A stretch of DNA of 64,000 nt from an uncultured virus (IMG/VR IMGVR_UViG_3300020194_001970) (IMGVR_UViG_3300020194_001970), one strand, 5' to 3'. Positions 4,771-60,172 are shown, numbered from the stretch's first letter. A program made the numbers and translations. The notes: generated from the sequence alone by a model not told the origin.

Positions 4771-4771
4771 G

Positions 4772-4776: not shown

Positions 4777-4785
4777 ATAAATATC

Positions 4786-7323: not shown

Positions 7324-7324
7324 G

Positions 7325-7329
7325 GTGTA
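7325..7329 (+). promoter_or_regulatory. GTGTA motif, 9 nt before ATG
   Basis: taagGTGTAatacataatATG. Confidence 0.6.
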
Positions 7330-7338
7330 ATACATAAT

Positions 7339-12614: not shown

Positions 12615-12656
12615 TTTTAATTAGAATTAATTTAAATACATTTTTATTATGATAGT

Positions 12657-31538: not shown

Positions 31539-31548
31539 TAGCATATAT

Positions 31549-31994: not shown

Positions 31995-32879
31995 CTACTT
32001 TGAAAAGTAAAAATCTTTATAATATTCATGACGAGAAGATAAACCTAAAGAGTCATATATAGAAAATTCAAAAAACCTATGAGTATTATAGGGAATTGAT
32101 TCATGAATTAAATTAGTTGAATTGTATGTATTTTCAGACACAATTTTTGTTCTTTCTTTATCTGAGAAAGCAGTGCATTTCACTTCCTTTGGGTTAAAGC
32201 TATAAAATAAATTAAAAAATATATCTATAGAATCTTCTCGATTGGAAAAATCTAACCTATGGCTAATTCTGCGCACCTCTGGGATCGGTGTTGATAGAAA
32301 GATAGAACACTTAGAGTTACCAGAGTAAACTGAGGATATTTCGCAATCAATTCTATAGTCCCTGATGCCCGCATTTTTTTTGAAGATTAAATTATGAGAG
32401 TCAATTAAGTCAAATGTTTGAATTAGCTCACCATTTAATTCAAAAACTTCTGCTGTAAATTTAGTTAAAATGGAAGATGATGGATCAATGAAGTTTTCTT
32501 CGTAGAGAATTTTAAAATCTATTGCATTTAATTCACTTAAGCTTTTAGTTTTACATACATAACTATTTGAATCTTGATCGAAAAAGATCTGATTTTTATT
32601 ACCATTTAAAGAAATAGAATCAAATTTAAGATTATTTATTAATGGATTTATTATAAATTTTTCTTCTGAAATTAAAATACAATCATAAACAGAACCGTAA
32701 TTTGAGGGTGTTACATGTATTCTATATCTATCAACTTCTTCGCAATCATTTAATGTAAAAAATGGGGAGTTTGGAGCTATAGAAAAACGCTCTTCAAAGG
32801 TGTCATTTTTATAAACATCAACCAATAATTCATTGTGTTGTTTATTGAAAGTTGGTAATTTAAATTTTAAATAATTCAT
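31995..32879 (-). CDS. Hypothetical beta-rich protein coupled to the tail-tip gene
   Basis: 294 aa; start overlaps the stop of 32876-44209. Confidence 0.55.
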   Translation of the reverse strand: MNYLKFKLPTFNKQHNELLVDVYKNDTFEERFSIAPNSPFFTLNDCEEVDRYRIHVTPSNYGSVYDCILISEEKFIINPLINNLKFDSISLNGNKNQIFFDQDSNSYVCKTKSLSELNAIDFKILYEENFIDPSSSILTKFTAEVFELNGELIQTFDLIDSHNLIFKKNAGIRDYRIDCEISSVYSGNSKCSIFLSTPIPEVRRISHRLDFSNREDSIDIFFNLFYSFNPKEVKCTAFSDKERTKIVSENTYNSTNLIHESIPYNTHRFFEFSIYDSLGLSSRHEYYKDFYFSK

Positions 32880-41800: not shown

Positions 41801-44209
41801 TCCGAATTGATCGTATTGCCAGTTACCGTTAATTTGTTTTTGTACATACCAGTTTTCTATGCCATTCCAGTCCGTCGGGACCTTACCTGCAGAAATGTAT
41901 GTCTGTAAATCTAATTTTAAAAATGCAGGAACAAAATATGTGGCTCCTTGTGTAGACTCAACAATCTTATAACTATAAGACCCGGGACCCGAAACTCTTT
42001 CACCTAATGCATAAGTATCGATCATTTCATTTTTGTAAGTTTCTACAGAAGGGCCACCAATACCATCAACCTCAGGCATATTCTTAGTATTGCAAAAAAA
42101 AGCATAACCATCATTACGTTCAATAAAGCCTACATGCAAGTAAACCTCTAAGTCCTTATAGTTTCTTAAAACTGAAGTGGAATTTTTCGTGCCTTTAAAG
42201 TAAATGCGACACATTCTATCGTAAGTTATTGGATTACCTAAATGATCAACATGGTTACCCCTGAGAGTTAAGAAATCATCGCCATAAGGCTCGTACTCTA
42301 CGGACGAAACATCACCATTATAAACATTTAAATTGGTGGCTTCATTACTATTTATAGCAGACAAAGCTGAGTCTATATCTAAATTAGATTGAGGTTTCTG
42401 AATACCCATTAAAGAACCTAAATCAGAAGCTCTAGCTTTAGAAAACCAATCTTCTCTCTGCCTTCTTTTATCTATAAGATAACTAAAATCTAAAGGTATT
42501 GATGGAGGATGCATTTCAAAATTCTCAGGCTTACTATTATAGCCTTCGCCTTCAAAAAATGGAATTTCTTGATTTATCGATGAATCATCAGACCATTCTT
42601 GAATACTGTTTTCTTGTTCTGTTTGATCTGAAAGCTCTTTTAATAAAAAATAATCTCCATCTCTATATTGAGAAGGAATTCCTCCAGTGCTTAAATTAGT
42701 AGAATCATTAAACTCTAACGTCGTGCCTGTGATTTTAAAAATTCTATTGGAAGATATTGAAATGGATTCTAGGTTTTTATCTAAAAATTCAGATTTATCA
42801 ATATTAGCTAAATGAGTATTATTTGGTTTGTCTATACTAATATACAAGTTATCAGAATTGGATTCTTGAGAGTTTGCTAATATGGTTTTTGTTCCATTTA
42901 AAATATTTCCATTAACATCTTTATATTTTGAACCTGACGATACAATATGAAGCAATCCATTAGTGGCATCAGGCTCCAATGAGTCTGCTAAAGAATGATC
43001 TATACCAGCAGGATATTCAAAATAAGATAAGTTTCTGATTTGTATTTGGTATTCAGTAAATTCAGGCTGTTGGATTGTTAAAGGGTAAGAAACTTCTCCA
43101 TTGTCAACTGCTCCAGTTATTGGCATGGCTAGACCAGCTATTGGGCCTTCTGATATAATTTCTAGCGTTTTGTAAAAACTTATAGATTCTAGTTTTTGAT
43201 AATTTCCCCGAGACCCAACTGTCATAGGTGTGCCAGGAGCTTTGAATGCAATAGCGTTAGGCCCAGAACTACTATGATGTATTACACATTGGTCGTTTTC
43301 TCCTTGAGGTCTCATCGACACATCTAAACCAACTAGCGGAAAAACTGAAGGTCTTGCAACGTCAGAAGATGGTAATGTAGATGTTGAGCTTCTTTTTGTT
43401 ACTCGCTTTGATTCAGAAGGGCCAAACACATATCTTTCCCCAGCCCAGTAAGAATTATCGTAACCTTCAGTAAAAGATTCATTATTTTGATCTGAGCTAA
43501 ATGTTTTAGCATTATTTTGTCCACCAAAATTAACAGACCTCTTGTCGTTATACTTATATATTTGAAATTGATCAGTGGAGGTAATTGACCTCAAGTCTTG
43601 ACCATCTGGTGAATTGGTTAAAATTTTATTAATACCTATATTTGGATCTATTGAGCTAATGGCATCAGACAAATATATTTGAGCTGTTTTAAAATCAAAA
43701 TCATGATTTTCAACATTAGCGTGTATAACTTTTGTTCCAACTCTTAGTTGACCATAAACTACTGGTATTGGAGATCCTTGTTCTGCTCGATTGTCATTGT
43801 CGGTATATATGTATGAATTTGTGGTAATTATTTCGTACTCTGGTTTACCGTCGTCCTCCATGAAATTTAATTTATCAGATAGCTTTTGCATCGCAAAGCC
43901 CATACCAGCATTTAATATAAAGCCTCCTATCGGTCCACCCATGAAGCCCTGCTTTCCAGCGATTTTTGGCATTAAGGAATACTCAGAATCTTTAAATAAA
44001 ATGTTGCCAAAAATTATATCGTAATTATTGTTTTGAGTATCAACAAATTCAAAGGTTACACCAGAGTTTATTTTGGAGATGAAATAAGATTTGAAATTTT
44101 TAAATTGTAGGCATAACGCATGGATAGCTTCATTTGGTGTAGAAACATCTAGATAAATTTCTTTAGTAAATTTATCACTTAACTCCCCATATAAAACAAA
44201 CCTTTTCAT
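32876..44209 (-). CDS. Giant tail tip protein: lambda gpI-like + gpJ-like fusion with CBM5/12-like repeats, Thr/Pro stalk and Calx-beta-like domains
   Basis: LYGEL..KF...V.TP.EAI.AL and QG.P.PV.YG...VG (gpI); ISEGPI.GL, SIYLN.VP, YP.TA...KG..VKVPSNY.P..R.Y.G.W.G.F...W..NPAW..YDL....YGMG...IDKW (gpJ). Confidence 0.85.
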   Translation of the reverse strand: MKRFVLYGELSDKFTKEIYLDVSTPNEAIHALCLQFKNFKSYFISKINSGVTFEFVDTQNNNYDIIFGNILFKDSEYSLMPKIAGKQGFMGGPIGGFILNAGMGFAMQKLSDKLNFMEDDGKPEYEIITTNSYIYTDNDNRAEQGSPIPVVYGQLRVGTKVIHANVENHDFDFKTAQIYLSDAISSIDPNIGINKILTNSPDGQDLRSITSTDQFQIYKYNDKRSVNFGGQNNAKTFSSDQNNESFTEGYDNSYWAGERYVFGPSESKRVTKRSSTSTLPSSDVARPSVFPLVGLDVSMRPQGENDQCVIHHSSSGPNAIAFKAPGTPMTVGSRGNYQKLESISFYKTLEIISEGPIAGLAMPITGAVDNGEVSYPLTIQQPEFTEYQIQIRNLSYFEYPAGIDHSLADSLEPDATNGLLHIVSSGSKYKDVNGNILNGTKTILANSQESNSDNLYISIDKPNNTHLANIDKSEFLDKNLESISISSNRIFKITGTTLEFNDSTNLSTGGIPSQYRDGDYFLLKELSDQTEQENSIQEWSDDSSINQEIPFFEGEGYNSKPENFEMHPPSIPLDFSYLIDKRRQREDWFSKARASDLGSLMGIQKPQSNLDIDSALSAINSNEATNLNVYNGDVSSVEYEPYGDDFLTLRGNHVDHLGNPITYDRMCRIYFKGTKNSTSVLRNYKDLEVYLHVGFIERNDGYAFFCNTKNMPEVDGIGGPSVETYKNEMIDTYALGERVSGPGSYSYKIVESTQGATYFVPAFLKLDLQTYISAGKVPTDWNGIENWYVQKQINGNWQYDQFGAGAFPYLARTIIPPSIEEAQVWTRFERWTSSLPTEYVIYNKFTTDIYQPIFTQEPDENPDNYDFYNEQVDYRIGDIVKIPGETYDVIESNSYNHMYKAITNITSKPDNAILWTSSQSYIEGKIVFLSEDPDTFYEAQQDIESVSLEGSFASQSNFSTFFEENTAIFSEGDAYKIDNDNGITVVYEVTDNFRKITSPTAWSDSVSYIVGSTVDFNGTIYIADGINDPDVGQDPTQNTTDWSEYDWNDYKPWIDSHNKWKTISYHEPGESNAWLEYEYNTMDPLEDADESIWRFVELTAIPPPQSVKEWDYYGDYQSGDQFIYDRRIYKVLEDIVSPLREAPFADTNRDSDERVFEQPLPEGAIQLALDPPQWDRDKLYTYGDKVHLRDPEDGSKAYYIYDKCTTEKERTRSPLTLLNWKPISYPSPIFGSRNNYRWIIDYQDKSESDVVEFQKTSYASLVPLVRFASPFSYPLWNSTNEYQGFYFQRKYSGYSKAKTFEENFHAFRNAAQNGNSYTLSRVDKSFVVVQYEGQLFKLKDGEYIGPPEDDPRLATVSSSTVDCIFDAAGKRITSSQVSLVNDFEDDINTDEFADLPTIETTIIGENGDPITYSSPEITYPEYDPPIDSNGNVHPKWEKIIPHERPSVNDSRFEVNEVWMQAGRTIDESSFDLSNYKAQPLNKFYHSKDGVFLRKDPPPTNAGGILGALAGLFSKVKGIYQSPRLEHRIQYKHTPWLDLIGNAGSNLTIGDFIREVYTNQRGFYEIKIKKFYKKIKYEHHAVNAMPCYHPNGENFNEAIIAAFSQANPDLKDFFNKNLLVKEPRVSNSRIRSNVVSSQKDHDEIQAKMYKTLRTRCLNFTVGVGGHPHPFASDDEANYYYGGEDYGFPSYHLQSHKFVSEQNGFWGESLETLNNIQFLQVGPTPQDYSVFPRGFYDADLFPRVTVFILRKRNSTRIDIVPTSIEAFAEIDPASKNVKNIYLLRVPSRCVYDSILTTKWNYISPTSYKNSKPSVVFGEEPFQDVGVYLKIDGSHGYYSISFNNTESTGNNLYSISNSSNVPSNNTFGLKNGWASHVEHDNVNPNQDLGMYKNNAVLDLVSYAPYSDSAKIRITTESINVSSGLDKRFYSSAIPNTINTGRIVDFSVTNKGSGYSQRSSVSVYDNSYIIRAVNVSGNERGYLPQLTFSILGLPKSKFDNTNLSIAQLKEYVTVSLILKASYRGRIEGDQNRTGNAADNIALSQKGLAIYRPGTGFSGPNDTVIFLNPDYYPDFSNEQKNRINQIKDALDSDLSILNEAENLLPDHALPKSPFIALAEKQNGSVFKFKQIQKGEGFNIYEPLPNLFEPPIKNLVKFIADFKDGSLESLKLDLNQEVVNYSNKDDNVKLVFAPPILLGSDMPENEPSTDPYKKFRSIYLNDVPIRDHTQRFNYSKFHFDMRIGHFKNATSTFPIEGTLATEARSSLISDEFRIPNYTSFINYPLYAPRNEGEKDYFYSYTIKNPDITDVSFSIKIKELHYIYEGDESVQYMNLIPIIGMVLGWMIGTWMAEKLLDLIPDITFGFGFGAVSGWTIPGIRGIIESALNALTYAFVIAGGVLGALAGIELARSAFKCSQLPWLCIKIGELIKNSGEIWPAKMRIAIEHGLEGETLLTDSVIFSGCVTSPYVKDIYIKNLPKAKPLNSSSRIFKNRIFRIYRITRELDPVEGGLAEARFKIDCELLSATEYVGGFFAYPSTAIMATRFNSKDFPSIPKREYIVKGKLVKVPSNYNPTARSYSGAWNGSFSSKLKWTSNPAWVIYDLLVNQKYGMGKYGITESDIDKWSFYLFSQKCDELVDVFVDGLLTKERRHMCNLYMDSESESFEYIKNLLNIYNASINFAQGKIALVQDALSFSGPIMFFNNSNISESGFTYSTSPRTKKISAITIDYLDERDNYMPKSEYVEDSELIKLFGYSHTRVAANGITRKGEAFRLGWSKLLSQKYAKELISFTSGLKVAYLSIGDIIEVLDNNKVSKHSGGRIMKIIDSHTIELDIPTEAFSGEVDSLLLEVDDFVYPSWDSSTNYTIPSTVVHKGSHYILIKNPEFKISPNFDPDHWSLISNENLRKTRVESFKINSVNGFQVSFVNSINNTSAGYSWVIKENSNPEDLIEPKQYRIEKISEKNDIEYEIFASEYNKDKYIAIDQLSSSNMSLGDFDILDDDYDDHFVKISAPATQTPTPSITPTISITPTISVTPSVTITQTSTITPTSTITPTSTITPTISITPTISVTPSVTITPTSTITPTSTITPTISITPTISVTPSVTITQTSTITPTISVTPTISVTPTNTVTPTSTITPTISVTPTISVTPTNTFTPTSTVSPTISITPTTTPTISITPTTTPTISITPTTTPTISITPTTTPTISITPTITLTISITPSITPTISVSPTISITPSNTPTLTPTPSITPTVSFPAGALNLTVDQTTLYVVEGQSSQVRVVRTVDDVSWRGEVRIRYSLSVYDNSSLSADTSDFVERSRIITLKGNQSEFFIPIRAKADNVDDDYEVFALTIEPLDLDSRTNITTVNLYPQDVYTSKGWSTLISIYPPTPPFSLSNTPTLTPTPTISITPSITPSISTTISVTPVITPSTTPEPSFTPTVTITPTIEETRTPTPTVTPTISVTPRIIQDLNVNLNAYAIVSEDNTTIDFDRDGTSDGTRQTLKINVYRSTGAATDLSIPFDFTIKIFKDVSDNATLDDLNQEIRNAEEFDDDANTWVLSDNIVYENRYSFDAEESEKLINISTRDEFSNMRFTEDDLTPEGLESLTLVIGDYKFPGTDERLSSSPQNVTFEDFNEDLDMWVDKTVKVYITDNDIVWILTFLDENGDNITTNISITREDFLGDNTFPSLPIETLELEPIDDDGSMGYRIAETEGDLGRFRESNLIIDAGGLNFDTLIYDDQEINISTWITSEDDHTIIRLLETDTFFHQIIGLITRPGIHRITLKIE
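34483..35190 (-). repeat. Thr/Pro/Ser/Ile low-complexity tract (ITPT/VTPT hexapeptide-like repeats)
   Basis: TPTISITPTISVTPSVTITQTSTITPT... within the tail tip protein; a second, shorter tract lies at about 33843-34076. Confidence 0.9.
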
Positions 44210-48160: not shown

Positions 48161-48960
48161 CTCTTATTTATATATGCACTGTAAGTTAAATTAGCAATCA
48201 TCACTGTATCAGAAGTTGAATTTAAGGATTGATTAGTAAGCTTAGCGTCCTTCAATGTAAATGTATTAATATTTAAATCGCTAATAGGGTTATTTAAACT
48301 TATACTTAGATCTTGGGATATTGGTTTAATTAAAGAAGATTTAAGCTGATTGATTTCATAATCAAAAATCTCAAGAGTAAACGAACATTCTTGAATAACT
48401 GGGAATTGTTGATGGACAGTTACTGGGAAAGGAGAGCCAATTGCATATACTGGAGTTCTATTCATTCGCATAGTATAAGAAAAATCAGAAACCCTATTAC
48501 TTTCAAAACCATCTACATTTATCTGTATAGAGCCTTGATTAGGTATTTGTATTTCTGGGACGGGTTCGTTGCCAAAATGATCGATGCCAGAACCAATATC
48601 CCCGTAAACTTGAAGTTGTGCGCTTGCTGTAGGTATTTGACCTATTCCGCAACTTAAAGAGTATTCGCTTAAATATGCATCTTCAAATCCAAATGTTTTG
48701 CCTTCGTAGTTAATGCTACCATTCATAGCTTTATCTCCTGTGTAAGACAATAAAATTTCATCTCCTATGTAGTATTTAGAGACTTGAAAATTTCCAACTA
48801 TTGCTCCTTGTTTTACGCCATATGTAAAACCTTTACCTAGGATATATATTGGGTCTTCACTGATTTCATAACCTCCATCTATACTAGTAACACCAAGAGC
48901 TTCAATGCCATCTATATAAAGCTTTTGTTCATAGTTGGATATAGAGCTTTTGTTAGCCAC
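48157..48960 (-). CDS. Tail tube-fold / distal tail protein with two internal homologous halves
   Basis: IDG...GV.S.....PIY.LG...FEDAYL versus VDG...RVS.....PVYAIG...LKDAKL; directly after the TMP. Confidence 0.5.
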   Translation of the reverse strand: MANKSSISNYEQKLYIDGIEALGVTSIDGGYEISEDPIYILGKGFTYGVKQGAIVGNFQVSKYYIGDEILLSYTGDKAMNGSINYEGKTFGFEDAYLSEYSLSCGIGQIPTASAQLQVYGDIGSGIDHFGNEPVPEIQIPNQGSIQINVDGFESNRVSDFSYTMRMNRTPVYAIGSPFPVTVHQQFPVIQECSFTLEIFDYEINQLKSSLIKPISQDLSISLNNPISDLNINTFTLKDAKLTNQSLNSTSDTVMIANLTYSAYINKR

Positions 48961-51900
48961 GCAACATACCTCCTACTCTTTTTTCTTGAGCAATTATACC
49001 GACTACAGCCTCTTTGATTTTACTTGCAAACTCTTTTTGATTTGAATTTCCACCATCAACTTGAGCTGAACCTTCCGACGAAACATTAATGTTGACAGTA
49101 ACATTGCTCGAAGAATTGGATGAATTATTTGTATCATTTGATATATTAGATATAGGGTCGCTGTTTGATTGAACCACTCCACCTTTATTCATTTTCATTG
49201 AATTTAATTTATTAAAGAATCCTGGGTATTTTTTTTCTACATTCTGAACGCTAGATGCTTTTATAACATATTCGCCTTTATCAAGCATTACAGGTCCAAC
49301 TTTATCTATGCCTCCTGGGCCTTTAACTTTACCTCCTCCGCTCATATATTGCATGGAATGAGAATTAACTGAGGAGTTATTGTAACTAACAGAACCACCA
49401 CGGTTAAAATAAGAGTATGGATTAACAGTCCAAGAGGAATTGTTGACAGATCCACCACGGTTAAAGTAAGAGTATGGATTGCTGTGTGATACAGAGCTAC
49501 TTACAGATCCACCACGGTTAAAGTAAGAATATGGGTTGCTGTGTGATACAGAACTGTTTACGGAGCCGCCACGGTTAAAATAAGAGTATGGATTGCTGTT
49601 AAGTACAGAACTATTGACGGATCCACCACGGTTAAAGTAAGAGTATGGATTGCTGTGTGATACAGAGCTACTTACAGATCCACCACGGTTAAAATAAGAG
49701 TATGGGTTGCTGTTAAGTACAGAACTATTGACGGATCCACCACGGTTAAAGTAAGAATATGGGTTGCTGTGTGATACAGAACTGTTTACGGAGCCGCCAC
49801 GGTTAAAGTAAGAGTATGGATTACTGTGTGATACAGAACTGTTGACGGATCCACCACGGTTAAAGTAAGAGTATGGATTACTGTTAAGTACAGAACTATT
49901 CACAGATCCACCACGGTTAAAATAAGAGTATGGATTGCTGTGTGATACAGAGCTACTCACAGATCCGCCACGGTTAAAGTAAGAGTATGGATTACTGTTA
50001 AGTACAGAACTATTCACAGATCCACCACGGTTAAAGTAAGAGTATGGATTACTGTGTGATACAGAGCTACTCACAGATCCGCCACGGTTAAAGTAAGAGT
50101 ATGGATTACTGTTAAGTACAGAACTATTCACAGATCCACCACGGTTAAAATAAGAGTATGGATTACTGTTAAGTACAGAACTATTCACAGATCCACCACG
50201 GTTAAAATGGCTTAAAGTCGAAGATACTACGCCCCCATTATTCATCTCATTGCTGTTGTAAATGTTATCATAAAGGTCTTGCATATTGGAGCTGAAATTT
50301 CTAGAGTAGGTCTTTGATTGATAATTTGCAAATTCTTGAGATGTAGTTGTAATTTTATTTTGACTACCGCCTCCAGATATAGCTCCAGAACCACTGATAT
50401 CTATAGTTTTACTGCCAACTTTTTGAGCAGTAGATGAACCTCCTTCTTTATTCATTGTTTTTGGAGGATTAACAAAACCCTTATGTTCCCAACCTTTGGG
50501 TAGATTTTTCATACTTGCTCGATATTCTTTGTTAGACATCCCGCCTTTCATTCCGTCTTTCATTATGTCAAGTTGTTTGCCTAAGCCTTTAGCAGCAATC
50601 ATACTTGTGAAACCGGTTGCCAGACTGTTGAGTTGATTCATTCTATTTAATACTTTTTGATTTTTTTGATCTATGTCATATTCGTATTTATCTAACAAAT
50701 ATTGGCCGTAATCTTTTCTGTACTGGTCGTTAGCTTTAAATCTGCCACTCATCATATTGCTTTGTGGGTCAATATCCAGAGCAGAGGAAACGTTTAATTT
50801 TTTGTATTGTTCGGGAGCTATCGGAGCATTGTCTTTGCTGTTTTTATTTGACTTGTCGCTGCCTAAATATTTACCTAGCATATAGCCACCGCCTTCAGCA
50901 ATATCCTGGTAGGCATCTTTAGCTTCATCGCTAGTAAAATGAGATTTAGTTGCTTGCCATTTTTCTTGGACCCAGGATTTTTTTTCTTGAACTCCACCAG
51001 TTGATCCATCTCTAAAATGTTGTAATAAACTAACTACTCCACCGTTAAACCTACTGATAGTTTGATCTAGTGAATGCATTTGATCTGGGCTCATTACGCC
51101 TTGATCTGTATATTGTGCAGAACCTGAATCAACCGTGTTATCTTTAGTGAATAAATGTTGACCTAAAAGTCCCCCACTTGACATTTGTGTAATTTGAGGC
51201 ATTTGAGATGCACCTTCAGTTTGTAAGTCAAAAAGATCTTCGTTTGGTTGATTGTATAAGTCATCTAGTGTTCCAGATTTATTTATATTATCAAAAGTAT
51301 TAATGCCTAGGCGATCAACAATTTTTTTCTTTACAACATACTCACCATTAGTTAACATTGCTGGGACTTTATTGGAGCCACCAACGGTTCCGCCAGAAGC
51401 ATAACCTTTAATTAAGCCGCCTGAATTCTTGAAATCAAAAAGCTCCATTATTCCTGTAGTAATTTGTTTTGTGGCTCTAGCAGTTAAGGCATCACCAACA
51501 GCTTTGGCTATGCCGCCAGCAAAACTTTTTATAGAGTCTCCCATAGACATTGTGCCTTCTGTAATATTTTTAAATAAATCTTGAAAACCAGTTTCAACGG
51601 CATCAAAAGTTGTATTGGCTAGAGTTTCGCCAAATCTCTCAAGTGCAAGGTTGTTTTCTTTTATTCTTTCTGTGATTGTATCTCTGAATAGAGCTTCTTT
51701 ACCAAGCTCTAGATTTATTTCTTTTTGTTTACGGGCAATTTCAAGGTCTTTTTCTGCAACTCTTACTCCGGCACCCCTTTGTTCGTAAGCAGACCTTTCG
51801 CCCTTAAGTTTTTGCATTTCACTTTGATCGGTACTCTTTTTCATGTCTACAGATCTTTGGCCTTCTTCGAAAAAGAAGTTGTCTGCAAGTTTGGCTTTTA

Positions 51901-54900
51901 ATTTTACTAGTGTTCTTGTGTAATCTCTTTCTGCTTCAGCCATTTCGTGCTTAGCATCTAGTAAGAACCTGCCATTATCTAAATTAGCGTTAAATTCTTC
52001 TTGAGCTCTTGCAGCAGCATTAACTGCCAATGTATAATCAGTGTCAGCTTTAATGGAAAAATATTTTTGATCTCTTTGTTGCTTTAGGAGCTCTGTGTCA
52101 TCTTCAGCAGTAAAACCCATAGTTTTTATTTCATTGGCAACTTTTTGCTCTATAATGCCTTTATATTCGCCGTACTTTTTTCTTAATTCTTCTTCGGCTG
52201 CTAAACGTTGACCAGTAATAAAAAGTGATTCATACTCTTTCATTACACTTGTGTGGGCAATCGATTTCTGTTCTTCTTGAAGTTCTAAAAGTCCTTGTCC
52301 GTCACGAGTATATATTTGTCTATTTTTTAAATTCTGGTACTCAATGTCAGATAGACCCTTACTAATTTTTAAATTTTCTGAAATAACGTCATTCAATTTG
52401 TTGGTTGGAGTATTTTTAATTCTATTTAATTCTTTCTTTACATACCCCAATGTTCCTAGTCGCATATTAATTTCGTCTTCTGATGCATCATTCTTTTTAT
52501 CTTCGATATTTTTTAATTGAGCGGATTTAGCCACACTTAACGCAGAGTTTGTGTTAATATTGTCGAGATTTTGTAATACATTAGCATTTTCATCAAAAAT
52601 TTCGCCTTGCAGGGATGCGATTGTCTCTGCGGCTTTGCCAGTAGAGGTTAGATGTTGTAACCATTGAGTTATTCTTATTTTAACTTCATCAAATTCTTTA
52701 GCGTCAAGTACTTGATTTGTGAAATTTTGATCGGCGTTTCCAGTGTTTTGTAATGTTTTAACTATTGATTGTTTTTGTTTCAAAAAGGCTTTGTCTTCTG
52801 CATCTATTTTCTCTTTACCAGTAAGACCTTTGCCTGTATCTGGGTCTATAGCAAACGTATCCGCTTTAAAAGCATTACTAGTTTTACCAGAAAATTTTGA
52901 GATTTCAGATCTCAACGCTTTGATTCGTTCGTTATTTATATTGGCAAGCTCATTGGCATACCTTTCGTCACTTGCTTTTCGTTTGGCTGCCATCTCCATT
53001 TCAACTTGATTGGATTTAGTAACAATGCCTGCTTTGATTTTGTATTGATTATCAAGGTCTTTTGTGTAGGAATCTAAACCTTGCTGAGCTGAAATTATAT
53101 CTAGTCTATTTTTTTCCGCCTGAAATTGTCGCTCGATGATTGTAGACATTTGAGCTCGAATGGCAGCCATTTTTCTAGACTGTTCGAGGTCTCCTTTTCT
53201 GGTTGCTACATCTTTTTCTAGTTCTGATTTGTATTTTTTAAGAAGACCGTATATTGCTTTAAGGTCTTCGCTACCTTCTTTTTGTAAACTAGGATCATCA
53301 CCTATTCCTTCTAGTATTTGTTGGATTTGAACAGCCGCCCCTTCCTGACCTGCATCTCCAGATTTAAGTGCAATTTCAACATTTTTCTTAATACCTTCAA
53401 GATATTTACTACCACTTAAATTTGGATTTATGTCTAGTATACCTTGGGCGGATTCATTCATGGAAACCGAACTGCCTAAGCTTCTAGCAGCTAGAATTCT
53501 AGCTGATTTCACAGAATTAGGGTCTCTTAAAATGGATGCATCAGTTCTATCAAAAACACCTGAATCTTCAAAAAGTCTTCCTGCCGCATCCAATGATTTC
53601 TGAAATTGTGGGAAACTGTTTTCCATATCAAAAACATTAGCATTTCCAGAAGCAATATCAATCATTAAATTTCCTAATGAAGCACTAACGGCTCCAGCAT
53701 CCAAAGTTTTGTCTAAAAAATCTCTTTTGCTTTCATCTCTTTGAAGCCCTTTACTGACTTGTATTCCGTTTAATTTCCTGGCGTAAAGAAGTTGAGCTTC
53801 TTGTAAAGCTTTCATGCCTTCAGTCGTACCTGATGTCATTAATTGCACTTCTTCGCCTGAAAGATTTAAATTCTTACTTAAACTGTTGGCAGATTTAGAC
53901 AATTCGGTATTTTGTTTGGCTAGCTTTGTTTCAAGCTCTAACTTTTTAAGCTGACCATCAAATGTATTTAGTGATGCAGAATTGTTGAGTTCTGTGATTT
54001 CGTTTCTTGTAGACTCAACATCTTGAGCTTGAGAAATTGCGGTAGTTAGAGAATCTAAACCTTTGGATGTTTTTGCTGCTGATTTATTTAACCTATCAAG
54101 AGAATTATCCAGCCAGTCAGTGTTTTCTTTTACCGCTTGAAAAACGGGTATTGCACCAGCAACAATTGCTCCAAGGGGCCCAATCGCGCCAAATACTTTC
54201 CCTAGTTTTCCTCCGCTTTGAGCTATTTCTTTGAAAGAGCTGCCAACTAAAACTGCTTGAGAAAGCCCTTGAGTGACACCAACTATACCCTTGACAGTTT
54301 TACTAGTTTCTTCTTCAAGGCTAGATAATTGCGATACAAATCCCTCAACAGCATAAGTTAATGATGTAAGAGCAAACAATTTACCCATTCCCATGTTATC
54401 ACTTTCTTTAAAATTGGGTATAAATCCAGAGCTGGCACCATGAGTTTTGGGATCGATGCCCATTCTTATTGCTCTATTTATTCCTTGTTTAATGCCACCA
54501 GGTTCATCTCTTGTATTTATAACGCCGAGACCCATGGGGTTTCCTCGAGAAACTAAACTTGAGTCCCTAGATATTCTAATTTGAGAACGAGGTATACCAG
54601 CCTTTTCTTCTCTATCTACAGCTTCTTCAAGTGGGTTGGCGAAATTAGGAATAAAACCAGAAGATTTACCTCCAAAAACATCTTTTTTATATATAAAAGG
54701 TATACCTTTGTGTGTTTTTCTAGCTATACCTTCATTGCCTGAGCGATTAACTTCAGTAAAAAATGAACTTAAATCAATAGGTTTACCTTTATAAGTTTCA
54801 CCAGTTACACCAGTTCCAAAATAATCATCGATATCATTTTGGTCTATTATACCTTCATTTAAAAACTTTTTAAATAGTTGAGCACTGGTGTGGCCGGGGC

Positions 54901-57900
54901 CAGAATGAGCGTCAATAAAATCATAACCTAGGGTTTTATTTGAAATATGTTTTTTCGATAAAGATGGGCTAATGTATTTTAAATGAGAAGCAGAAGCTCT
55001 AACTGGTCCGTAAAAATCAATCGGGGCATTATAGCTCGGTGTCCTATTAAAAATTTGACCAACAAAAGTTTCATAAGCTCTTCCATCTTTAATGTTTTTC
55101 TTCATTTGAGATTTAGATCTGAAATTAGGAATAAATCCAGAGCTTAAATTATATCCACTGACTTGAGAGCTTCCTCCTTCTTTCCATATTTTTTCAGCAC
55201 TTTTTAGAGCTAAATCTTTCTTGGTGTCTGATAGAGATTTAGCGAAAGGACTCATACCTTTACTTTCAAGGTAGTTTTCTAGATAGCGATCTGTTGTAAG
55301 CTTCAAGCTTTTAGCCATTATACTGTTAGCTTTGGCGTCATTAAATTTAGCTTCAATAGGAGTTCTTCCTGGAGCTACAAAATCAACATTAGCACTCGGG
55401 TCTCCAGACGTGGAAATGTAGCCTTTTTTTCCTAGATTTTTTTGCAAACCTTTTTCATAAATTGAGCCAGGAATTCTACTTCTATCTCCGCCAGAAAGAC
55501 CTCTTTGTTTTCTGCTGGCAGATCTTGCAACCTTGTTTAAGGGGTCTCCAGATTTTGTGAAATAAAAAGGTCGGGTTAAAGTGGTTATGCCTAAAGCTTC
55601 TAGAGCCATTAATTGAGATGATAGTTGTCTTGCTCCTTTATCTTTCTGTAGTTGTGAAACTTGAGATTTAATGTTATGCCAACCACCTTTAGCATATTTA
55701 TTGTCACTAGTTTGAACAAACATTTTAGCTTTAGGTAACCTAAGAACATTGCCGGAAGCCATAGCTTCTAAAGCAAAATTAGGAACAAATCCATCACTCA
55801 TAATTTTAAATTTTGAAGGATTCTTAGCTAAGTTTTGCAGTTGATTTCTATTGTAACCTTTATTTGATAAGTAATCAATTAATGGAGCTCCAAGATATTG
55901 TTGATTTGGATTTTGTTGAAACATCCTGAGTATCTCTTGGTCCCAGATATTTTTTGATTTTATGATTTGCGGTTGAGTGTTTTTATAGTTAAATTTAATG
56001 CCTTTATTTGCGGGGTCATTTAATGTGTCTTTTATTTTTTGTGCCCTACTTCTTGGGTCTATAAAGTTTGGAATAAATCCATCAAACATATAAGGATCAA
56101 AACCATGTTTATTTTCAAAGTCTGATTGGTATTTTTTTCCAGCTTTACTTTTAAAAGGGGGAACAATAGCTTCTTGCTTCATTCCGGGGAATTTTTTTAC
56201 TGATTCAGAACCATTATAAACAACTCTACCAACCCCATCAATATTCATGGATTTTACATTTCCCGGAACATATCCGGCTTTTAAGGCTGAATTTTTCTCT
56301 ACCATCTTTTCCGTTTGGGAGACAGAAAAGTTTGGTATGTATCCTTCTGCAGCAGTTTTCTTTGGCGGTAATGTTAAGTCAGGATTAACGCCTTTCCTAA
56401 CTAAACCTGGAGCTAGAGTTCCAGCAATTCTTTGTTGTTGTTGAAGATATCGAGTTTGCTGTTTGATTACTTCAAGCATTACTTGTTCTTGCTTTGTTTT
56501 ATCGTTGGCATATTTATTTAATTCAACAGCTAGCTGTTTATTTTGAGACATAGCCATAACAATACTTTCTTGTATAGCTTTTTCTTTATCTTTAGCGCTA
56601 ACAATTCCAAGAACATCCTTCAGAGAAGATTTTGCAAACTTTAGCGCATTAGTAAATAGTTTAGCGAAAACGCCAAAAACTAAAACCAGTCCTGGGCCAG
56701 TTAGAACACTCCCTATTCCACTAACAAGGCCTTTGGCAAAATCAGCACCAATTCCTTCACTATCCTTACCAAATAAATCATTCAGACCTCCAGCTAGAGA
56801 GTTAACAGCATCCAAAACTTTGGATATTCCTGGAGCCAAAGCTAAGTCTCCTAAATTTTTAGAAAGTTCTTGTATAGTTAAGGATGTTTGGGTAGCTAAA
56901 GAAGAAATTGTTTTTTGAAGTTGAGCATTCTTTTGTTGAGCTTGATCGGTTGCTTGTGAGGAAATTTGTGTTGCTTGCGCATACAAAGAATTCTCTCTAT
57001 TCAAATCTTTTAATGCCGCTTTTAAAACGTTGATCTGGAAAACGCCACCAACTTGTTCTGCTACCGCAGCTTTCGTAGCAGAACCAAGAGTATCGTAAGC
57101 TTTAGATAAACTTTGCAAGACAGATAAAGCTGGCAAAGTATTACCTCTAATATCTCTTACTGCAACACCAAGCTCTTCAAGCCTATCTAAAGTGCTGCTA
57201 CGTTGAATACGAGTAAATATAGTTTTAAAACTATTACCAATAACCGCACCACCTCTAGCAGTGATTTGTTGAGCGGATGTAACTGCACCAACTAATTGGT
57301 CAAAATTAACACCAGCATCTTGAGCAACAGCTCCTGCTCGAGCAAGAGCATCGATAAGGTCATCAGCACTAACGGCAAATTTAACATCGACTGCAGCCAA
57401 TTTGTTGATGATATTTGTAGTAGTCAACCCAGCATCAGCAAAACCATTTACCGCAGCAGTTAAACCTGAAACGGCATCAGCCGCTTTGATTCCAGTTAGT
57501 CGAGTTAAGATCAACGCATCATTAGTACGTTTTAAAGTTTCCTCCATACTTAAACCTTGACGTGAAAACTCCAATGCGGCTTCTGCTGCGACTTCCAAGC
57601 TTTGGGAGGTATTTCTGGCGACTTTAAATAAATCGTTACCAAATTTTTGTAGGTTAGTTAGGCTGGTATTTAAAACCACATTGATATCAGTTAATATTTT
57701 CTCAACTTTAATAGACTGAACCGTAAGCTCTTTGAAAGCAGTTACAACTGAACCAATGATAGCCGCTGAAGCTCCAAACGCTATAACACGAGCATTAGAA
57801 GCTTCTAAAGATTTAGTGAACTCATCCGCCTTCTGTGTAATTCTACCGAGTGGTTGAGTGTAATCAGAAGATCTTATTTTTACATTAAGACCTCTACGAT

Positions 57901-57970
57901 TAATTCTATTTACTACATCTTGAATTGACTCATCGAGTCCAACTTGCTGTGTTTTAATATTAAGCGCCAT
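48953..57970 (-). CDS. Tail tape measure protein (TP901-type core) with cargo cassettes and repeats
   Basis: N-terminal TP901-family core (EFSRQG, LTAAVNGF, IGNSFKTIFTR), hydrophobic segments, long helical region, two VP.ML..GEYV-type motifs, position upstream of the tail tip genes. Confidence 0.9.
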   Translation of the reverse strand: MALNIKTQQVGLDESIQDVVNRINRRGLNVKIRSSDYTQPLGRITQKADEFTKSLEASNARVIAFGASAAIIGSVVTAFKELTVQSIKVEKILTDINVVLNTSLTNLQKFGNDLFKVARNTSQSLEVAAEAALEFSRQGLSMEETLKRTNDALILTRLTGIKAADAVSGLTAAVNGFADAGLTTTNIINKLAAVDVKFAVSADDLIDALARAGAVAQDAGVNFDQLVGAVTSAQQITARGGAVIGNSFKTIFTRIQRSSTLDRLEELGVAVRDIRGNTLPALSVLQSLSKAYDTLGSATKAAVAEQVGGVFQINVLKAALKDLNRENSLYAQATQISSQATDQAQQKNAQLQKTISSLATQTSLTIQELSKNLGDLALAPGISKVLDAVNSLAGGLNDLFGKDSEGIGADFAKGLVSGIGSVLTGPGLVLVFGVFAKLFTNALKFAKSSLKDVLGIVSAKDKEKAIQESIVMAMSQNKQLAVELNKYANDKTKQEQVMLEVIKQQTRYLQQQQRIAGTLAPGLVRKGVNPDLTLPPKKTAAEGYIPNFSVSQTEKMVEKNSALKAGYVPGNVKSMNIDGVGRVVYNGSESVKKFPGMKQEAIVPPFKSKAGKKYQSDFENKHGFDPYMFDGFIPNFIDPRSRAQKIKDTLNDPANKGIKFNYKNTQPQIIKSKNIWDQEILRMFQQNPNQQYLGAPLIDYLSNKGYNRNQLQNLAKNPSKFKIMSDGFVPNFALEAMASGNVLRLPKAKMFVQTSDNKYAKGGWHNIKSQVSQLQKDKGARQLSSQLMALEALGITTLTRPFYFTKSGDPLNKVARSASRKQRGLSGGDRSRIPGSIYEKGLQKNLGKKGYISTSGDPSANVDFVAPGRTPIEAKFNDAKANSIMAKSLKLTTDRYLENYLESKGMSPFAKSLSDTKKDLALKSAEKIWKEGGSSQVSGYNLSSGFIPNFRSKSQMKKNIKDGRAYETFVGQIFNRTPSYNAPIDFYGPVRASASHLKYISPSLSKKHISNKTLGYDFIDAHSGPGHTSAQLFKKFLNEGIIDQNDIDDYFGTGVTGETYKGKPIDLSSFFTEVNRSGNEGIARKTHKGIPFIYKKDVFGGKSSGFIPNFANPLEEAVDREEKAGIPRSQIRISRDSSLVSRGNPMGLGVINTRDEPGGIKQGINRAIRMGIDPKTHGASSGFIPNFKESDNMGMGKLFALTSLTYAVEGFVSQLSSLEEETSKTVKGIVGVTQGLSQAVLVGSSFKEIAQSGGKLGKVFGAIGPLGAIVAGAIPVFQAVKENTDWLDNSLDRLNKSAAKTSKGLDSLTTAISQAQDVESTRNEITELNNSASLNTFDGQLKKLELETKLAKQNTELSKSANSLSKNLNLSGEEVQLMTSGTTEGMKALQEAQLLYARKLNGIQVSKGLQRDESKRDFLDKTLDAGAVSASLGNLMIDIASGNANVFDMENSFPQFQKSLDAAGRLFEDSGVFDRTDASILRDPNSVKSARILAARSLGSSVSMNESAQGILDINPNLSGSKYLEGIKKNVEIALKSGDAGQEGAAVQIQQILEGIGDDPSLQKEGSEDLKAIYGLLKKYKSELEKDVATRKGDLEQSRKMAAIRAQMSTIIERQFQAEKNRLDIISAQQGLDSYTKDLDNQYKIKAGIVTKSNQVEMEMAAKRKASDERYANELANINNERIKALRSEISKFSGKTSNAFKADTFAIDPDTGKGLTGKEKIDAEDKAFLKQKQSIVKTLQNTGNADQNFTNQVLDAKEFDEVKIRITQWLQHLTSTGKAAETIASLQGEIFDENANVLQNLDNINTNSALSVAKSAQLKNIEDKKNDASEDEINMRLGTLGYVKKELNRIKNTPTNKLNDVISENLKISKGLSDIEYQNLKNRQIYTRDGQGLLELQEEQKSIAHTSVMKEYESLFITGQRLAAEEELRKKYGEYKGIIEQKVANEIKTMGFTAEDDTELLKQQRDQKYFSIKADTDYTLAVNAAARAQEEFNANLDNGRFLLDAKHEMAEAERDYTRTLVKLKAKLADNFFFEEGQRSVDMKKSTDQSEMQKLKGERSAYEQRGAGVRVAEKDLEIARKQKEINLELGKEALFRDTITERIKENNLALERFGETLANTTFDAVETGFQDLFKNITEGTMSMGDSIKSFAGGIAKAVGDALTARATKQITTGIMELFDFKNSGGLIKGYASGGTVGGSNKVPAMLTNGEYVVKKKIVDRLGINTFDNINKSGTLDDLYNQPNEDLFDLQTEGASQMPQITQMSSGGLLGQHLFTKDNTVDSGSAQYTDQGVMSPDQMHSLDQTISRFNGGVVSLLQHFRDGSTGGVQEKKSWVQEKWQATKSHFTSDEAKDAYQDIAEGGGYMLGKYLGSDKSNKNSKDNAPIAPEQYKKLNVSSALDIDPQSNMMSGRFKANDQYRKDYGQYLLDKYEYDIDQKNQKVLNRMNQLNSLATGFTSMIAAKGLGKQLDIMKDGMKGGMSNKEYRASMKNLPKGWEHKGFVNPPKTMNKEGGSSTAQKVGSKTIDISGSGAISGGGSQNKITTTSQEFANYQSKTYSRNFSSNMQDLYDNIYNSNEMNNGGVVSSTLSHFNRGGSVNSSVLNSNPYSYFNRGGSVNSSVLNSNPYSYFNRGGSVSSSVSHSNPYSYFNRGGSVNSSVLNSNPYSYFNRGGSVSSSVSHSNPYSYFNRGGSVNSSVLNSNPYSYFNRGGSVNSSVSHSNPYSYFNRGGSVNSSVSHSNPYSYFNRGGSVNSSVLNSNPYSYFNRGGSVSSSVSHSNPYSYFNRGGSVNSSVLNSNPYSYFNRGGSVNSSVSHSNPYSYFNRGGSVSSSVSHSNPYSYFNRGGSVNNSSWTVNPYSYFNRGGSVSYNNSSVNSHSMQYMSGGGKVKGPGGIDKVGPVMLDKGEYVIKASSVQNVEKKYPGFFNKLNSMKMNKGGVVQSNSDPISNISNDTNNSSNSSSNVTVNINVSSEGSAQVDGGNSNQKEFASKIKEAVVGIIAQEKRVGGMLRG
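49386..50206 (-). repeat. 57-bp (19-aa) in-frame tandem repeat, 15 FNRGG cores
   Basis: ccacggttaaa recurs every 57 bp from 49398 to 50196; unit FNRGGSV(N/S)SSV(LN/SH)SNPYSY. Confidence 0.95.
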
Positions 57971-57998: not shown

Positions 57999-59003
57999 TT
58001 ATTTTGTTTTGTGTCCGCTTAATTCCATTAAATCTTGCATAGAAAGTGAGCCGCCTTTTTTTTCGGCAGCTTCATGCAAAGACATTCTTGCCCCAGAATT
58101 TGGTTTTTCAAGCCCCGCATATTCATAGTCTTCTTGAGTTGCTCCAAACAATGTAGTTCCATCTTTATCTGAAGATAGTTGTTTTTGCATTTTCTCTTTA
58201 GCTTCATCACTAATGCTACCATAATCCAATAAAGCTTGCGGATCTTTCTTTATTTTTTCTGGAATATGGCTGTTATTCTCAAATATATTTTTAAAAATTT
58301 TAGTATAAACAATTAACTTCAATTGGTTATATGTTAAATGACAAACTGGATTACCAAAAAAACCAACTGTATCATCGCTAAATGGAAAATAAATATAGTA
58401 AAAATCTTGAAGAATCATTTCTTGTATTTTTAATTCTTCAAACATTTTAAATGTATCATTGTAGACTTGAATAAATTTAACTATATCTTCAGAGTATAAT
58501 TCATCAAAATCTTCTTCATTAGGAAAAACAGCAGATTTTAATTCTCGATCATTAAAAAAACTTTTAATAACATAATGATCATTTGATCTTTTTTCGGAAT
58601 AACTTTCAGCATTAACACCAACTAATGAATGCCTTTTTTCTTTTAACTCATTAATTTTTTTACGAGTTTCTTGAATAGTTTCATTTTGTTTGTCTATTTG
58701 AGATTTTAGAATTAATTCAGTTTTAGTTTTTTGGAGCTGCTCAATAAACTTTTCTTGCTTGATGATTTCATTTTCGTCTTTGTCCGACCAAATTCCTTGA
58801 GAATTTAGTTCTTTTAAAACTTCTTTTTCTGTGGGTATACCTCTGTTAATCGCAGATTTAAGATGCTTTTCTTTAATTTCATCAATATCTACTTGATCAA
58901 GAGCACTTAAGTGTTTGATGTAGAATTTAGTTTCGTCTATTGAAACTTCTGAATATCCTACAACAATATCTCGAAAGATTTTCCTGTAAGATGATATATC
59001 CAC
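57999..59003 (-). CDS. Putative tail assembly chaperone
   Basis: Directly upstream of the TMP; helical and charged. Confidence 0.45.
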   Translation of the reverse strand: MDISSYRKIFRDIVVGYSEVSIDETKFYIKHLSALDQVDIDEIKEKHLKSAINRGIPTEKEVLKELNSQGIWSDKDENEIIKQEKFIEQLQKTKTELILKSQIDKQNETIQETRKKINELKEKRHSLVGVNAESYSEKRSNDHYVIKSFFNDRELKSAVFPNEEDFDELYSEDIVKFIQVYNDTFKMFEELKIQEMILQDFYYIYFPFSDDTVGFFGNPVCHLTYNQLKLIVYTKIFKNIFENNSHIPEKIKKDPQALLDYGSISDEAKEKMQKQLSSDKDGTTLFGATQEDYEYAGLEKPNSGARMSLHEAAEKKGGSLSMQDLMELSGHKTK

Positions 59004-59004
59004 A

Positions 59005-59853
59005 TTACAGGGTACCTTCTTCTATATCTTTCTCTAAATCCTTGAAATCTTCTTCTGAAGAAGAGCTGCTGAAATACCAAAAACTAACAAAAGCAGTCAG
59101 TTTGTCGTAAACAATTGAGAGTAGATCATTTTCCTCTTCTTCCAGTTGGTAAAAGAATTCTTTTTTCTCATTGAAATCTGCTCCTTCAAAATATGGAACA
59201 AGCTTGTCATCTTTTTCAATGTATGATAAATTTAATAAATACCAGGTAATTACTTTGTTTTGAGCTCGACTATCAGCGGTATGATTCAGGAGGGCGCTGA
59301 AGTTAGTTTCAGCTGTGGCAATAGCTTTACGTAATGTTGCCATTTGTTCAGAAACTTTTTTTCTTTTTTCTTCATTGCTTGGATTTTGAGCCTGCATATT
59401 TAATTGAGTGAACTCGGTTTGCATTTCACCCAATTTACCATAAAGCTCTTTCAGCTTTTCTGCATCAGACTCACTAAGCATTCCGCCTGTATCAGAATAC
59501 TTATTCATTAACATAGCTTTAGTGAGAACTCCTTGCTTGACACATTTACTCATTTCAATGCTATATTCCATGTCGGCCTCCTCCATTTGGCGGCGGGTGG
59601 GCTGTTTGATTACGAATGTATGTTCAACCTTATTTGTTTCAGTACGTTTTTCTTTAACGATCTGTTTTTCTTTAATCTTTCGTTTTTCTTTATCTTTATA
59701 TTTTTCTTCGGTACCGTCTTCTTTTTGACGAGTTTTTTCTACCTCGATTTCTTTTTCGACTTCAATTTCTTTTTCGACATCGACTTCTTTTTCTTCTTCG
59801 ACATCTTGAAAGACTTTAAAACGATATATTTCTTTATTTGTTTTTGTATACAT
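59005..59853 (-). CDS. Putative tail assembly chaperone
   Basis: Start moved to ATG 59853 (MYTK), preceded by AAAGGAACAAGG; IKQPTRRQ.EEAD motif; second gene upstream of the TMP. Confidence 0.45.
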   Translation of the reverse strand: MYTKTNKEIYRFKVFQDVEEEKEVDVEKEIEVEKEIEVEKTRQKEDGTEEKYKDKEKRKIKEKQIVKEKRTETNKVEHTFVIKQPTRRQMEEADMEYSIEMSKCVKQGVLTKAMLMNKYSDTGGMLSESDAEKLKELYGKLGEMQTEFTQLNMQAQNPSNEEKRKKVSEQMATLRKAIATAETNFSALLNHTADSRAQNKVITWYLLNLSYIEKDDKLVPYFEGADFNEKKEFFYQLEEEENDLLSIVYDKLTAFVSFWYFSSSSSEEDFKDLEKDIEEGTL

Positions 59854-59887
59854 TACCTTGTTCCTTTGGTTGTTAAATATTATAAAT

Positions 59888-60172
59888 TTATTTGAAATTA
59901 AATTCAACAATAAATTTTTCTAAATCATTTTCAGACCCTCTGATTGATTCGTTTCCCATATCTAGTATTTTTTTGCGAAGATATTGCATTTTTTCTTCAT
60001 CAAAGTAATTAGCTTGATTTAATAGATTAGTATGCTCTGGGAGAGATTTTTTTAATTTATGAAAACAGATTTGGTTTTCTGTATATAGGTCTTCCATTAG
60101 AACCAAGAAGTTTTTAAATAAACTTTTAGTGCTACCATTAAACCTGTCCGAAAGAAAATCTTTAGCTTCCAT
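59888..60172 (-). CDS. Hypothetical small helical protein
   Basis: Start moved to ATG 60172 (MEAKD), preceded by AAAAGG; first gene of the minus-strand run. Confidence 0.55.
   Translation of the reverse strand: MEAKDFLSDRFNGSTKSLFKNFLVLMEDLYTENQICFHKLKKSLPEHTNLLNQANYFDEEKMQYLRKKILDMGNESIRGSENDLEKFIVEFNFK

Follow-up and report, generated by a model that had tools for sequence, protein, structure and literature searches.

Tape measure proteins (TMPs) of phages are usually seen as rulers and channel formers, at times with one wall-degrading motif. Mycobacteriophage TM4 is said, from the work of Piuri and Hatfull in 2006, to have a cell-wall enzyme motif (motif 3) embedded in its TMP, and T5 pb2, with its metallopeptidase, and the TMPs of SPbeta and phiIPLA35 reportedly carry embedded cell-wall enzymes as well. 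Here we describe a TMP encoded in a 64,000-nucleotide stretch of DNA from an uncultured virus (IMG/VR IMGVR_UViG_3300020194_001970; the whole stretch is referred to as the window), in which a short peptide motif, G[FY][IV]PNF, recurs six times and separates five segments of the polypeptide. As in the four TMPs just named, domains lie inside the TMP, and theirs have the host as their target during infection; each of the four has a single peptidoglycan hydrolase motif, in most cases a C-terminal one, whereas the family of the window protein has 2-12 fenced modules in the N-terminal half. Tentatively, and with somewhat more doubt than confidence, we read the five segments as a peptide-fenced cassette array in which the fence is most likely a processing site and the modules are delivered to the host.

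TMPs exit the tail before the DNA and span the envelope (PMC12617516, PMC10770324). Thermus phage P23-45 has a 5,002-residue TMP, gp96, whose N-terminal part is a virion RNA polymerase; this enzyme works in the host, at the TMP pore as its authors propose (PMC10770324). It resembles the window TMP as a giant siphophage TMP whose head-proximal enzyme enters the host with the TMP; it differs in having one fused enzyme, and neither a repeated fence nor bookends nor module shuffling is described for it. T5 pb2 is cut after tail assembly into pb2* and pb2C, after R1127 (PMC10038345), and lambda gpH is cut at the same stage into gpH* and gpHC, at an unknown site (PMC12617516); the protease is unknown in both cases (PMC10038345, PMC12617516). 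The processing proposed here would be like these in that a TMP is cut post-assembly, separating an enzymatic or tip-bound part, and unlike them in that theirs is a single cut near the C terminus. Lastly, polyvalent proteins are giant polypeptides of phages and conjugative elements in which unrelated domains, many acting on nucleic acid, are combined; their entry into the host is assumed to accompany that of the DNA, and processing into pieces has been proposed (Iyer et al., 2017, PMC5512222). The family described here shares with them the stringing together of several unrelated domains in one giant polypeptide and the reshuffling of architectures between relatives. In contrast to this family, polyvalent proteins are presented in the accessible text of PMC5512222 with no universal fence peptide and with 0 occurrences of "tape measure". 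An embedded zincin-like metallopeptidase (MPTase) is frequent in that class, albeit not obligatory, whereas no peptidase family, zincin-like included, appeared in our Pfam scans of 26 TMPs (that of the window and 25 relatives). The window protein is thus a TP901-type TMP with polyvalent-like and enzyme-bearing-TMP traits, set apart by a universal fence peptide, by bookends and by exchange at the fence. Where TMPs are at times granted one extra motif, here a whole family has a standardised slot system, with one peptide fencing every module and modules swapped at the fence.

The six motifs lie in frame in a single 3,005-aa open reading frame (ORF), at residues 543, 631, 727, 945, 1105 and 1182. 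The degenerate DNA pattern GGNTWYRTNCCNAAYTTY matched the window six times, all on the minus strand, against 0.00 matches expected from 100 shuffles, and the positions are exactly those of the earlier note from which this work started. The gene, its Pfam core, and the fences as located by the pattern search and the ORF frame are as follows:

48953..57970, minus strand: tape measure protein gene, 3,005 aa (single ORF; PF10145; PHROG TMP families)
57044..57619, minus strand: TP901-type core (PF10145), aa 118-309 (Pfam)
56327..56344, minus strand: fence motif 1, GYIPNF, aa 543-548
56063..56080, minus strand: fence motif 2, GFIPNF, aa 631-636
55775..55792, minus strand: fence motif 3, GFVPNF, aa 727-732
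55121..55138, minus strand: fence motif 4, GFIPNF, aa 945-950
54641..54658, minus strand: fence motif 5, GFIPNF, aa 1105-1110
54410..54427, minus strand: fence motif 6, GFIPNF, aa 1182-1187

Between them lie the five segments, given here with their AlphaFold2 confidence (predicted local distance difference test, pLDDT) and with the number of relatives that carry the same cluster of segments (see below):

56081..56326, minus strand: segment 1, 82 aa, N-terminal bookend mini-domain (alignment; hidden Markov model, HMM), pLDDT 82-92, cluster C4 in 44/120 TMPs
55793..56062, minus strand: segment 2, 90 aa, small helical module, pLDDT 58-88, cluster C3 in 67/120 TMPs, position varies
55139..55774, minus strand: segment 3, 212 aa, near-universal module, candidate PD-(D/E)xK nuclease (E...D...ExK), pLDDT 80-96, cluster C1 in 107/120 TMPs
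54659..55120, minus strand: segment 4, 154 aa, variable module, pLDDT 32-57, cluster C8 in 20/120 TMPs
54428..54640, minus strand: segment 5, 71 aa, C-terminal bookend mini-domain (alignment; hhalign), pLDDT 74-83, cluster C2 in 86/120 TMPs

Relatives were collected with aa 520-1210 as query, which matched 1,147 giant proteins (range searched 1,652-5,259 aa), and the best 120 of the 1,147 were used. PF10145 is present in 116 of these 120 TMPs according to precomputed Pfam annotation, and some of them lie on contigs of 200-527 kb. With a regular expression of our own, G[FYLM..][IVLM]PN[FY..], every one of the 120 was found to contain 2-12 copies of the motif, and 766 of the 829 copies fall at 10%-50% of the protein length. 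The consensus over 748 distinct sites is [AL][SA]xG[LF][IV]PN[FY][AS]. Because the expression itself fixes G, P and N, we also read the aligned sites without it, and in a 40-row alignment G, P, N and F are conserved at 95-100% at the five internal sites. The motif is confined to the TMP ORF and present in no other ORF at 80 IMG/VR loci, each taken with flanks of up to 10 kb; at three of them (L036, L040, L071) the motif-bearing ORF labelled "other" is the TMP itself, which is not the longest ORF there.

A profile of segment 5, run against 1.84 billion cluster representatives, matched 1,034 proteins at E <= 0.001, 895 of them still at E <= 1e-10. The family comprises 1,034 representative clusters, with no cultured member, on contigs up to several hundred kilobases. 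Among 126 new proteins from this search, 27 are shorter than 1,300 aa and some start at a fence; these short matches look like fragments or internal-start calls. For the cassette region there was no tblastn match in 50,697 phage records and no megablast match to GenBank phages, and the N-terminal TMP core has at most 28% identity to TMPs of Bacillus and Lactococcus phages. A scan of genome contigs gave nine loci, eight of which belong to metagenome-assembled bins from various phyla (Cellvibrionales, Halobacteriovorax, Neomarinimicrobiota, Flavobacteriaceae and Verrucomicrobiales); the ninth, in a Pseudomonas membrane protein, was rejected as a chance match, and no particular host emerged from the scan. 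That the system is undescribed, as had been proposed, holds for the literature covered, namely 8.1 million PMC papers and 0.36 million preprints: the four commonest motif strings turned up in just one unrelated human serum proteomics paper, without this meaning, and no literature pairing "tape measure protein" with "polyvalent protein" concerned this layout by title or abstract.

The segments behave as cassettes. Clustering of the 709 inter-motif segments from the 120 TMPs gave 114 clusters, of which 59 are singletons, while the flanks and the two bookends are conserved. Rather than being invariant copies of one repeat domain, the segments differ between relatives by insertions and deletions (indels) of whole modules. 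Module order varies (C3-C1 in some TMPs, C1...C3 in others), 0 to 9 extra modules are inserted, and fence spacing is very uneven, from 5 to >900 aa. Three loci with TMPs 84-92% identical (L022, L024, L026) differ by indels of 341 aa and of 152 aa that extend precisely from motif to motif, each an integral count of "module plus fence" units, with DNA joints in the first codons, or the last codon, of the 18-nt motif coding. We then examined indels of at least 40 aa in the array with reasonably aligned flanks, in 150 pairs sampled from 804 close pairs, which are not independent of one another. Among 96 boundaries of 48 distinct indels, 56 lie within 1 aa of a motif, compared to 4.8% for random points, and for 18 of the 48 indels this is true of both ends. 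When stricter flanks were required, 30 of 42 boundaries were that close to a motif, and 12 of 21 indels were so at both ends. Most of the other boundaries are due to unrelated modules forced into alignment. Relatives are thus shown to differ by the gain, loss and reordering of whole modules, brought about by recombination within the motif codons.

The codons of the motif tell what is being kept. In 46 locus pairs with the same module order, the motif codons showed 240 synonymous vs 105 non-synonymous differences, whereas the six codons on either side showed 275 synonymous vs 726 non-synonymous differences; here the regular expression limits which non-synonymous motif changes are visible. Since synonymous changes outnumber non-synonymous ones in the motif and the reverse is true of the flanks, selection keeps the motif peptide and not its DNA. 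The same picture emerges within the window, where, as had been noticed, the motif is conserved as protein with varied codons: the copies are pairwise identical at 11-17 of 18 nt, and the longest exact runs that they share are 3-15 nt. The suggestion that the motif is a recombination signal therefore stands in the historical sense, as indels start and end in it, and falls as far as selection on DNA is concerned. The motif variant showed a modest association with both adjoining modules and no clear one with the whole protein, with no indication of which side "owns" the fence, nor of co-evolution with a single partner.

The lengths of the segments and their basic character (pI 9.4-10.0) agree with the earlier note, which had also called them globular-looking. 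Four of the five bear this out in an AlphaFold2 model of aa 543-1187, built from a 40-row alignment of whole proteins and read as pLDDT per 10-residue block: in each of them part or the whole of the segment attains a pLDDT of about 74 or higher, whereas segment 4, with its shallow alignment, does not. Mean pLDDT over the array is 70.4 and the predicted template modelling score (pTM) is 0.41. Values <50 occur in model residues 1-5, 92-97, 185-191, 400-414, 556-569 and 638-643, which correspond to the fences and parts of segment 4. The low pTM together with the low-confidence fences points to beads on a string rather than one domain, and most modules are predicted to fold on their own with the fences in flexible linkers. 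The fold search that had been called for gave no significant match: the whole 645-residue model had no Foldseek match at E <= 0.001 and, in a wide VIA-align search, just Z <= 4.0 on small helical segment 2, and Pfam found nothing in the cassette region of the window even at E <= 10.

The outer two segments had been said to resemble each other weakly, and the likeness was confirmed. A profile-profile comparison of segment 1 with segment 5 (hhalign) gave a probability of 95% and an E value of 3.6e-8, a score inflated by the flanking motifs included in the profiles. Both contain a helix in which E and A-G are invariant, and strands in which N and E are. Segment 1 is modelled by AlphaFold2 as helix, four strands, helix, and its alignment (A3, 20 sequences) has 25 invariant columns; in that of segment 5 (A2, 40 sequences) R, E, A, L, N, P, G, V, N, D, E and P are invariant. 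By these comparisons segments 1 and 5 class as homologous mini-domains. HMMs of these bookends, with the fence columns left out, gave at least one match in 198 of 198 motif-bearing TMPs, typically one per array end, and none in the two motif-less TMPs L017 and L018, which are near duplicates and thus count as one independent case. The TMP ORFs of these two loci (2,039 and 2,026 aa) are homologs of the TMP (59% identity in the first 400 aa) that have neither fence motif nor bookend; about 500 unrelated residues stand where the array would be. No relatives of the bookends were found in Pfam, in Protein Data Bank (PDB) profiles or in a language-model atlas: against solved structures the segment 5 profile had no match and that of segment 1 one stray match (IgA1 protease, E 0.011), and segment 1 had no usable match in the atlas. 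A complex prediction for pairing of the two bookends, as a clasp that would make the array a closed loop, scored 0.19 where the mark is 0.32, which speaks neither for nor against it. Among the segment 5 profile matches, a 483-aa protein (P0123) consists of three tandem bookend mini-domains with no cargo between them and with degenerate fences, D-I-P-N-L-A and I-P-H-F.

Segment 3 has a nuclease-like residue set. D863, E873 and K875 are invariant in 21 and in 40 sequences, an upstream E is almost invariant, and G794, R800, K887, S888 and D894 are also invariant. Modelled alone, the segment reached a pLDDT of 78 and a pTM of 0.74; in model numbering E113 lies in helix 109-121, D137 at strand 138-139, and E147 and K149 in strand 146-149. 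The E...D...ExK set is thus placed with E on a helix and with D and ExK on the second and third of three successive strands. This order is that of the PD-(D/E)xK nuclease core, making segment 3 a candidate that is nuclease-like by its residues only. Its profile had one stray match among solved structures (E 0.88), Foldseek found nothing at E <= 0.001, and the VIA-align matches to FAN1 (Z 2.9, rmsd 4.5, 95 aligned), EndA (2.5) and CdiA-CT (2.4) are in the noise range by the tool's own statement. Language-model neighbours were the Tox-REase-7/3/5/9 and CDI EC869-like clusters at 0.79-0.81, which serve as a lead only.

Fewer clues came from the other two segments. Segment 2 had weak three-helix or homeodomain-like matches in VIA-align (Z up to 4.0). 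In segment 4, GRxYE, D985, D1020-A, G1026-H1027, K1035, E1073 and D1097 are invariant in 10 sequences, and larger relatives of it carry an additional N-terminal CI-type helix-turn-helix (HTH). Stand-alone homologs were found neither for segment 3 (123-392 aa) nor for segment 4 (91-291 aa), in a search that needs shared 5-residue words and may miss distant ones. By precomputed Pfam annotation SNase (PF00565) occurs in 9 of the 120 TMPs and the CI-type HTH (PF07022) in one. Our own Pfam scans of 25 relatives found SNase in two, HTH in one, a weak PGDYG in one and no other cargo domain, and no wall hydrolase was recognised among the modules of these relatives or of the window TMP.

The array is bracketed by two hydrophobic stretches, both conserved in the family consensus:

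56630..56734, minus strand: membrane-like hydrophobic stretch 1, aa 413-447 (Kyte-Doolittle values up to 1.84 in windows of 19 residues)
54125..54205, minus strand: hydrophobic, membrane-like stretch 2, aa 1256-1282 (Kyte-Doolittle up to 1.99)

It sits in the head-proximal part of the TMP. In the relatives, TMP length correlates with array length (r 0.78) and with the part past the last fence (r 0.79), and the latter two correlate weakly with each other (r 0.24).

Under the reading that we tentatively favour, the TMP, like other TMPs, would leave the tail ahead of the DNA and lodge in the host envelope. One conserved partner would read the fence motif, the modules would be cut free at the fences after tail assembly, and the basic modules would then arrive at or in the cytoplasm as prefabricated proteins acting on nucleic acid. 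We are about as hesitant over the fence as a processing site taken by itself. It is favoured because n modules have n+1 fences whatever the module size, because the motif ends in an aromatic followed by a small residue (Ala/Ser), like many protease sites, and because in T5 and lambda the TMP is cut after assembly. As in processed polyproteins, a short conserved site stands in accessible linkers between independently folding units, with n+1 sites for n units. If the modules do enter the host, siphophage tails would provide a general way of bringing in pre-made proteins, with their exchange built in. The rule of one unit between two fences would allow simple mining of hundreds of unknown phage protein domains, and the family offers a sharp test of TMP processing, which is open even for lambda (PMC12617516).

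Several observations weigh against delivery of freed modules. No cleavage product, protease or partner was found, and among protease families the window has just a weak JAB match in a gpK-like protein. For P23-45 no cut between enzyme and TMP is reported in the accessible text, where "proteoly" has 0 occurrences and "cleav" is used just for a tag (PMC10770324). The T5 and lambda cleavage sites were tried as a model for the fence and rejected, the R1127 site being unlike G-F-I-P-N-F and the lambda site unmapped. In 16 of the 40 aligned rows the fence ahead of segment 1 has E, K, D or Q in place of N; this fence often reads G-phi-phi-P-E and often lacks the Phe as well as the Asn, so that the complete motif is not required at each fence. 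Some variants, such as GH[IV]PN[FY] with H at position 2, escape our regular expression, so the motif counts are lower bounds. The homologs are related to each other, so that the counts are of non-independent events. Segment 4, with its pLDDT of 32-57 from a shallow alignment, is not confidently folded. Segment 3 has neither a Pfam nor a PDB profile match, its best hit in the wide VIA-align search (STING, Z 3.4) is not significant, and its near-universal presence suits a core function better than an arms-race payload. Lastly, Pfam on 12 further TMPs gave PF10145 alone, and since Pfam names so few modules, the word "effector" draws on few named domains.

The main rival explanation, which we regard as rather unlikely, leaves the protein uncut: the fence would be a docking or hinge peptide read during tail assembly by a chaperone or the tube wall, keeping each inserted module manageable inside the narrow lumen, and the modules, never released, would work tethered to the TMP channel at the inner membrane. 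The motif is indeed an exposed, hydrophobic and strictly conserved linear peptide in low-confidence linkers, and an array between two hydrophobic stretches could loop at the membrane. The tail tube lumen is about 4 nm wide, and the modules of 350-960 aa in relatives are too large when folded to fit it, so some handling of unfolded modules is needed. The P23-45 enzyme, working within its TMP with no cut reported (PMC10770324), and the want of any protease beyond the weak JAB match in our scans of the window, are as expected if the modules stay tethered. What speaks against tethering is the irregular fence spacing, odd for periodic docking, whereas the n+1 rule fits release; moreover, the long ruler part is without the motif though it too passes the chaperone and the tube, and no docking partner was identified.

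More improbable is a purely structural role, in which the segments, inactive in the host, are parts of the tail or of a trans-envelope channel and the motif is a turn-forming insulator that lets them fold or unfold independently, Gly, Pro and Asn being strong turn formers. Most modules lack a recognised enzyme family, the bookends and segment 3 are constant in the family rather than variable payload, and segments 3 and 4 lack stand-alone homologs at near-module lengths, all consistent with such a role. However, an insulator needs neither three conserved hydrophobic positions nor conserved flanks over about 750 sites; the invariant D/E/K of segment 3 and the SNase and HTH modules of relatives point to nucleic acid; and free gain and loss of modules between close relatives is unlike part of a fixed geometry.

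A special form of the processing reading, in which the TMP cuts itself, we consider a long shot. Here, after closure of the tube around the TMP, the fences would dock on the acidic inner wall of the tube, the invariant Asn would cut its own Asn|Phe bond, and the lumen would hold a phage-specific set of free, swappable nucleases and DNA binders to be injected ahead of the DNA, with the bookends marking the ends of the payload; non-contractile tails would then have a cassette-based system for injecting proteins. By analogy, the chemistry would be that of an asparagine lyase, as when tetravirus and nodavirus coats mature or in the barrels of autotransporters. The coat proteins of nodaviruses and tetraviruses and reovirus mu1 undergo asparagine-dependent self-cleavage, and the tetravirus scissile pair is Asn|Phe. 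Viral polyprotein sites are like the fences in being short conserved sites between independently folding units, and the tetravirus pair likewise has Asn then Phe, but coat-protein self-cleavage needs a folded catalytic surround, whereas the fence motif lies in predicted flexible linkers. Least credible of all is a motif kept mainly as a DNA-level recombination site for cassette exchange with a functionless peptide: the joints inside the motif coding and the pile-up of indel boundaries there are in its favour, but the limited nucleotide identity of the window copies together with the excess of synonymous differences in the motif and its reversal in the flanks largely refutes it.

The protein that carries the array classes, by its domain matches, as a TP901-type TMP in a lambda-like tail operon. 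PF10145 scores 81.9 bits (gathering cut-off 33.2) and PHROG TMP families match aa 7-505 (best E 1.5e-40). The gene lies upstream of the distal tail and tip genes, as expected of a TP901-1-type TMP. On the same strand after it come a tube-like protein, a gpM-like (PF05939), a gpL-like (PF05100) and a gpK-like protein (PHROG 30, with the weak JAB match at E 2.4e-4, under the cut-off) and a gpI/gpJ fusion (PHROG 32 and PHROG 31 matches), which is the gene set of a lambda-like tail tip. The terminase and head genes are on the opposite strand.

Other features of the window were noted along the way. In the C-terminal part of the TMP (49389-50206, minus strand, aa ~2589-2861) there is a tandem array of 14.4 copies of a 57-nt (19-aa) unit with 86% matches, NRGGSV(N/S)SSV(L/S)(N/H)SNPYSYF, with F-N-R-G-G in each unit and nothing between copies. 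A longer glycine motif occurs in two copies, GYASGG..VPAMLTNGEYVV and SGGGKVKGPGGIDKVGPVMLDKGEYVI (51326-51415 and 49241-49348, minus strand; aa ~2186-2215 and ~2875-2910), and is almost invariant in the family consensus. Directly upstream of the TMP gene, at 57999-59910 on the minus strand, two ORFs of 301 and 334 aa, at most 3 nt apart, had no family match; their position makes them candidates for the tube protein and/or a large frameshift-made tail assembly chaperone. At 32876-44209 (minus strand) a 3,777-aa protein has a gpI-like tail assembly domain at aa 1-170 (PHROG 32), a gpJ-like central fibre at aa 2517-2978 (PHROG 31) and a CBM5/12 match. The tail operon closes with a glycosyltransferase cluster (27014-31544, minus strand) in which two DUF2827 proteins accompany one of 796 aa that is made up in part of GT25, GT8 and GT34-like regions. 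On the plus strand, a 751-aa RCC1-repeat protein comes first and then three proteins that carry FG-GAP repeats, concanavalin-like LamG domains or both (28-8880), probably fibres or adhesins, and upstream of the terminase (12021-13692) lie small proteins that match a GAF domain (E 5e-5) and sigma-70 region 2 (E 3.2e-5).

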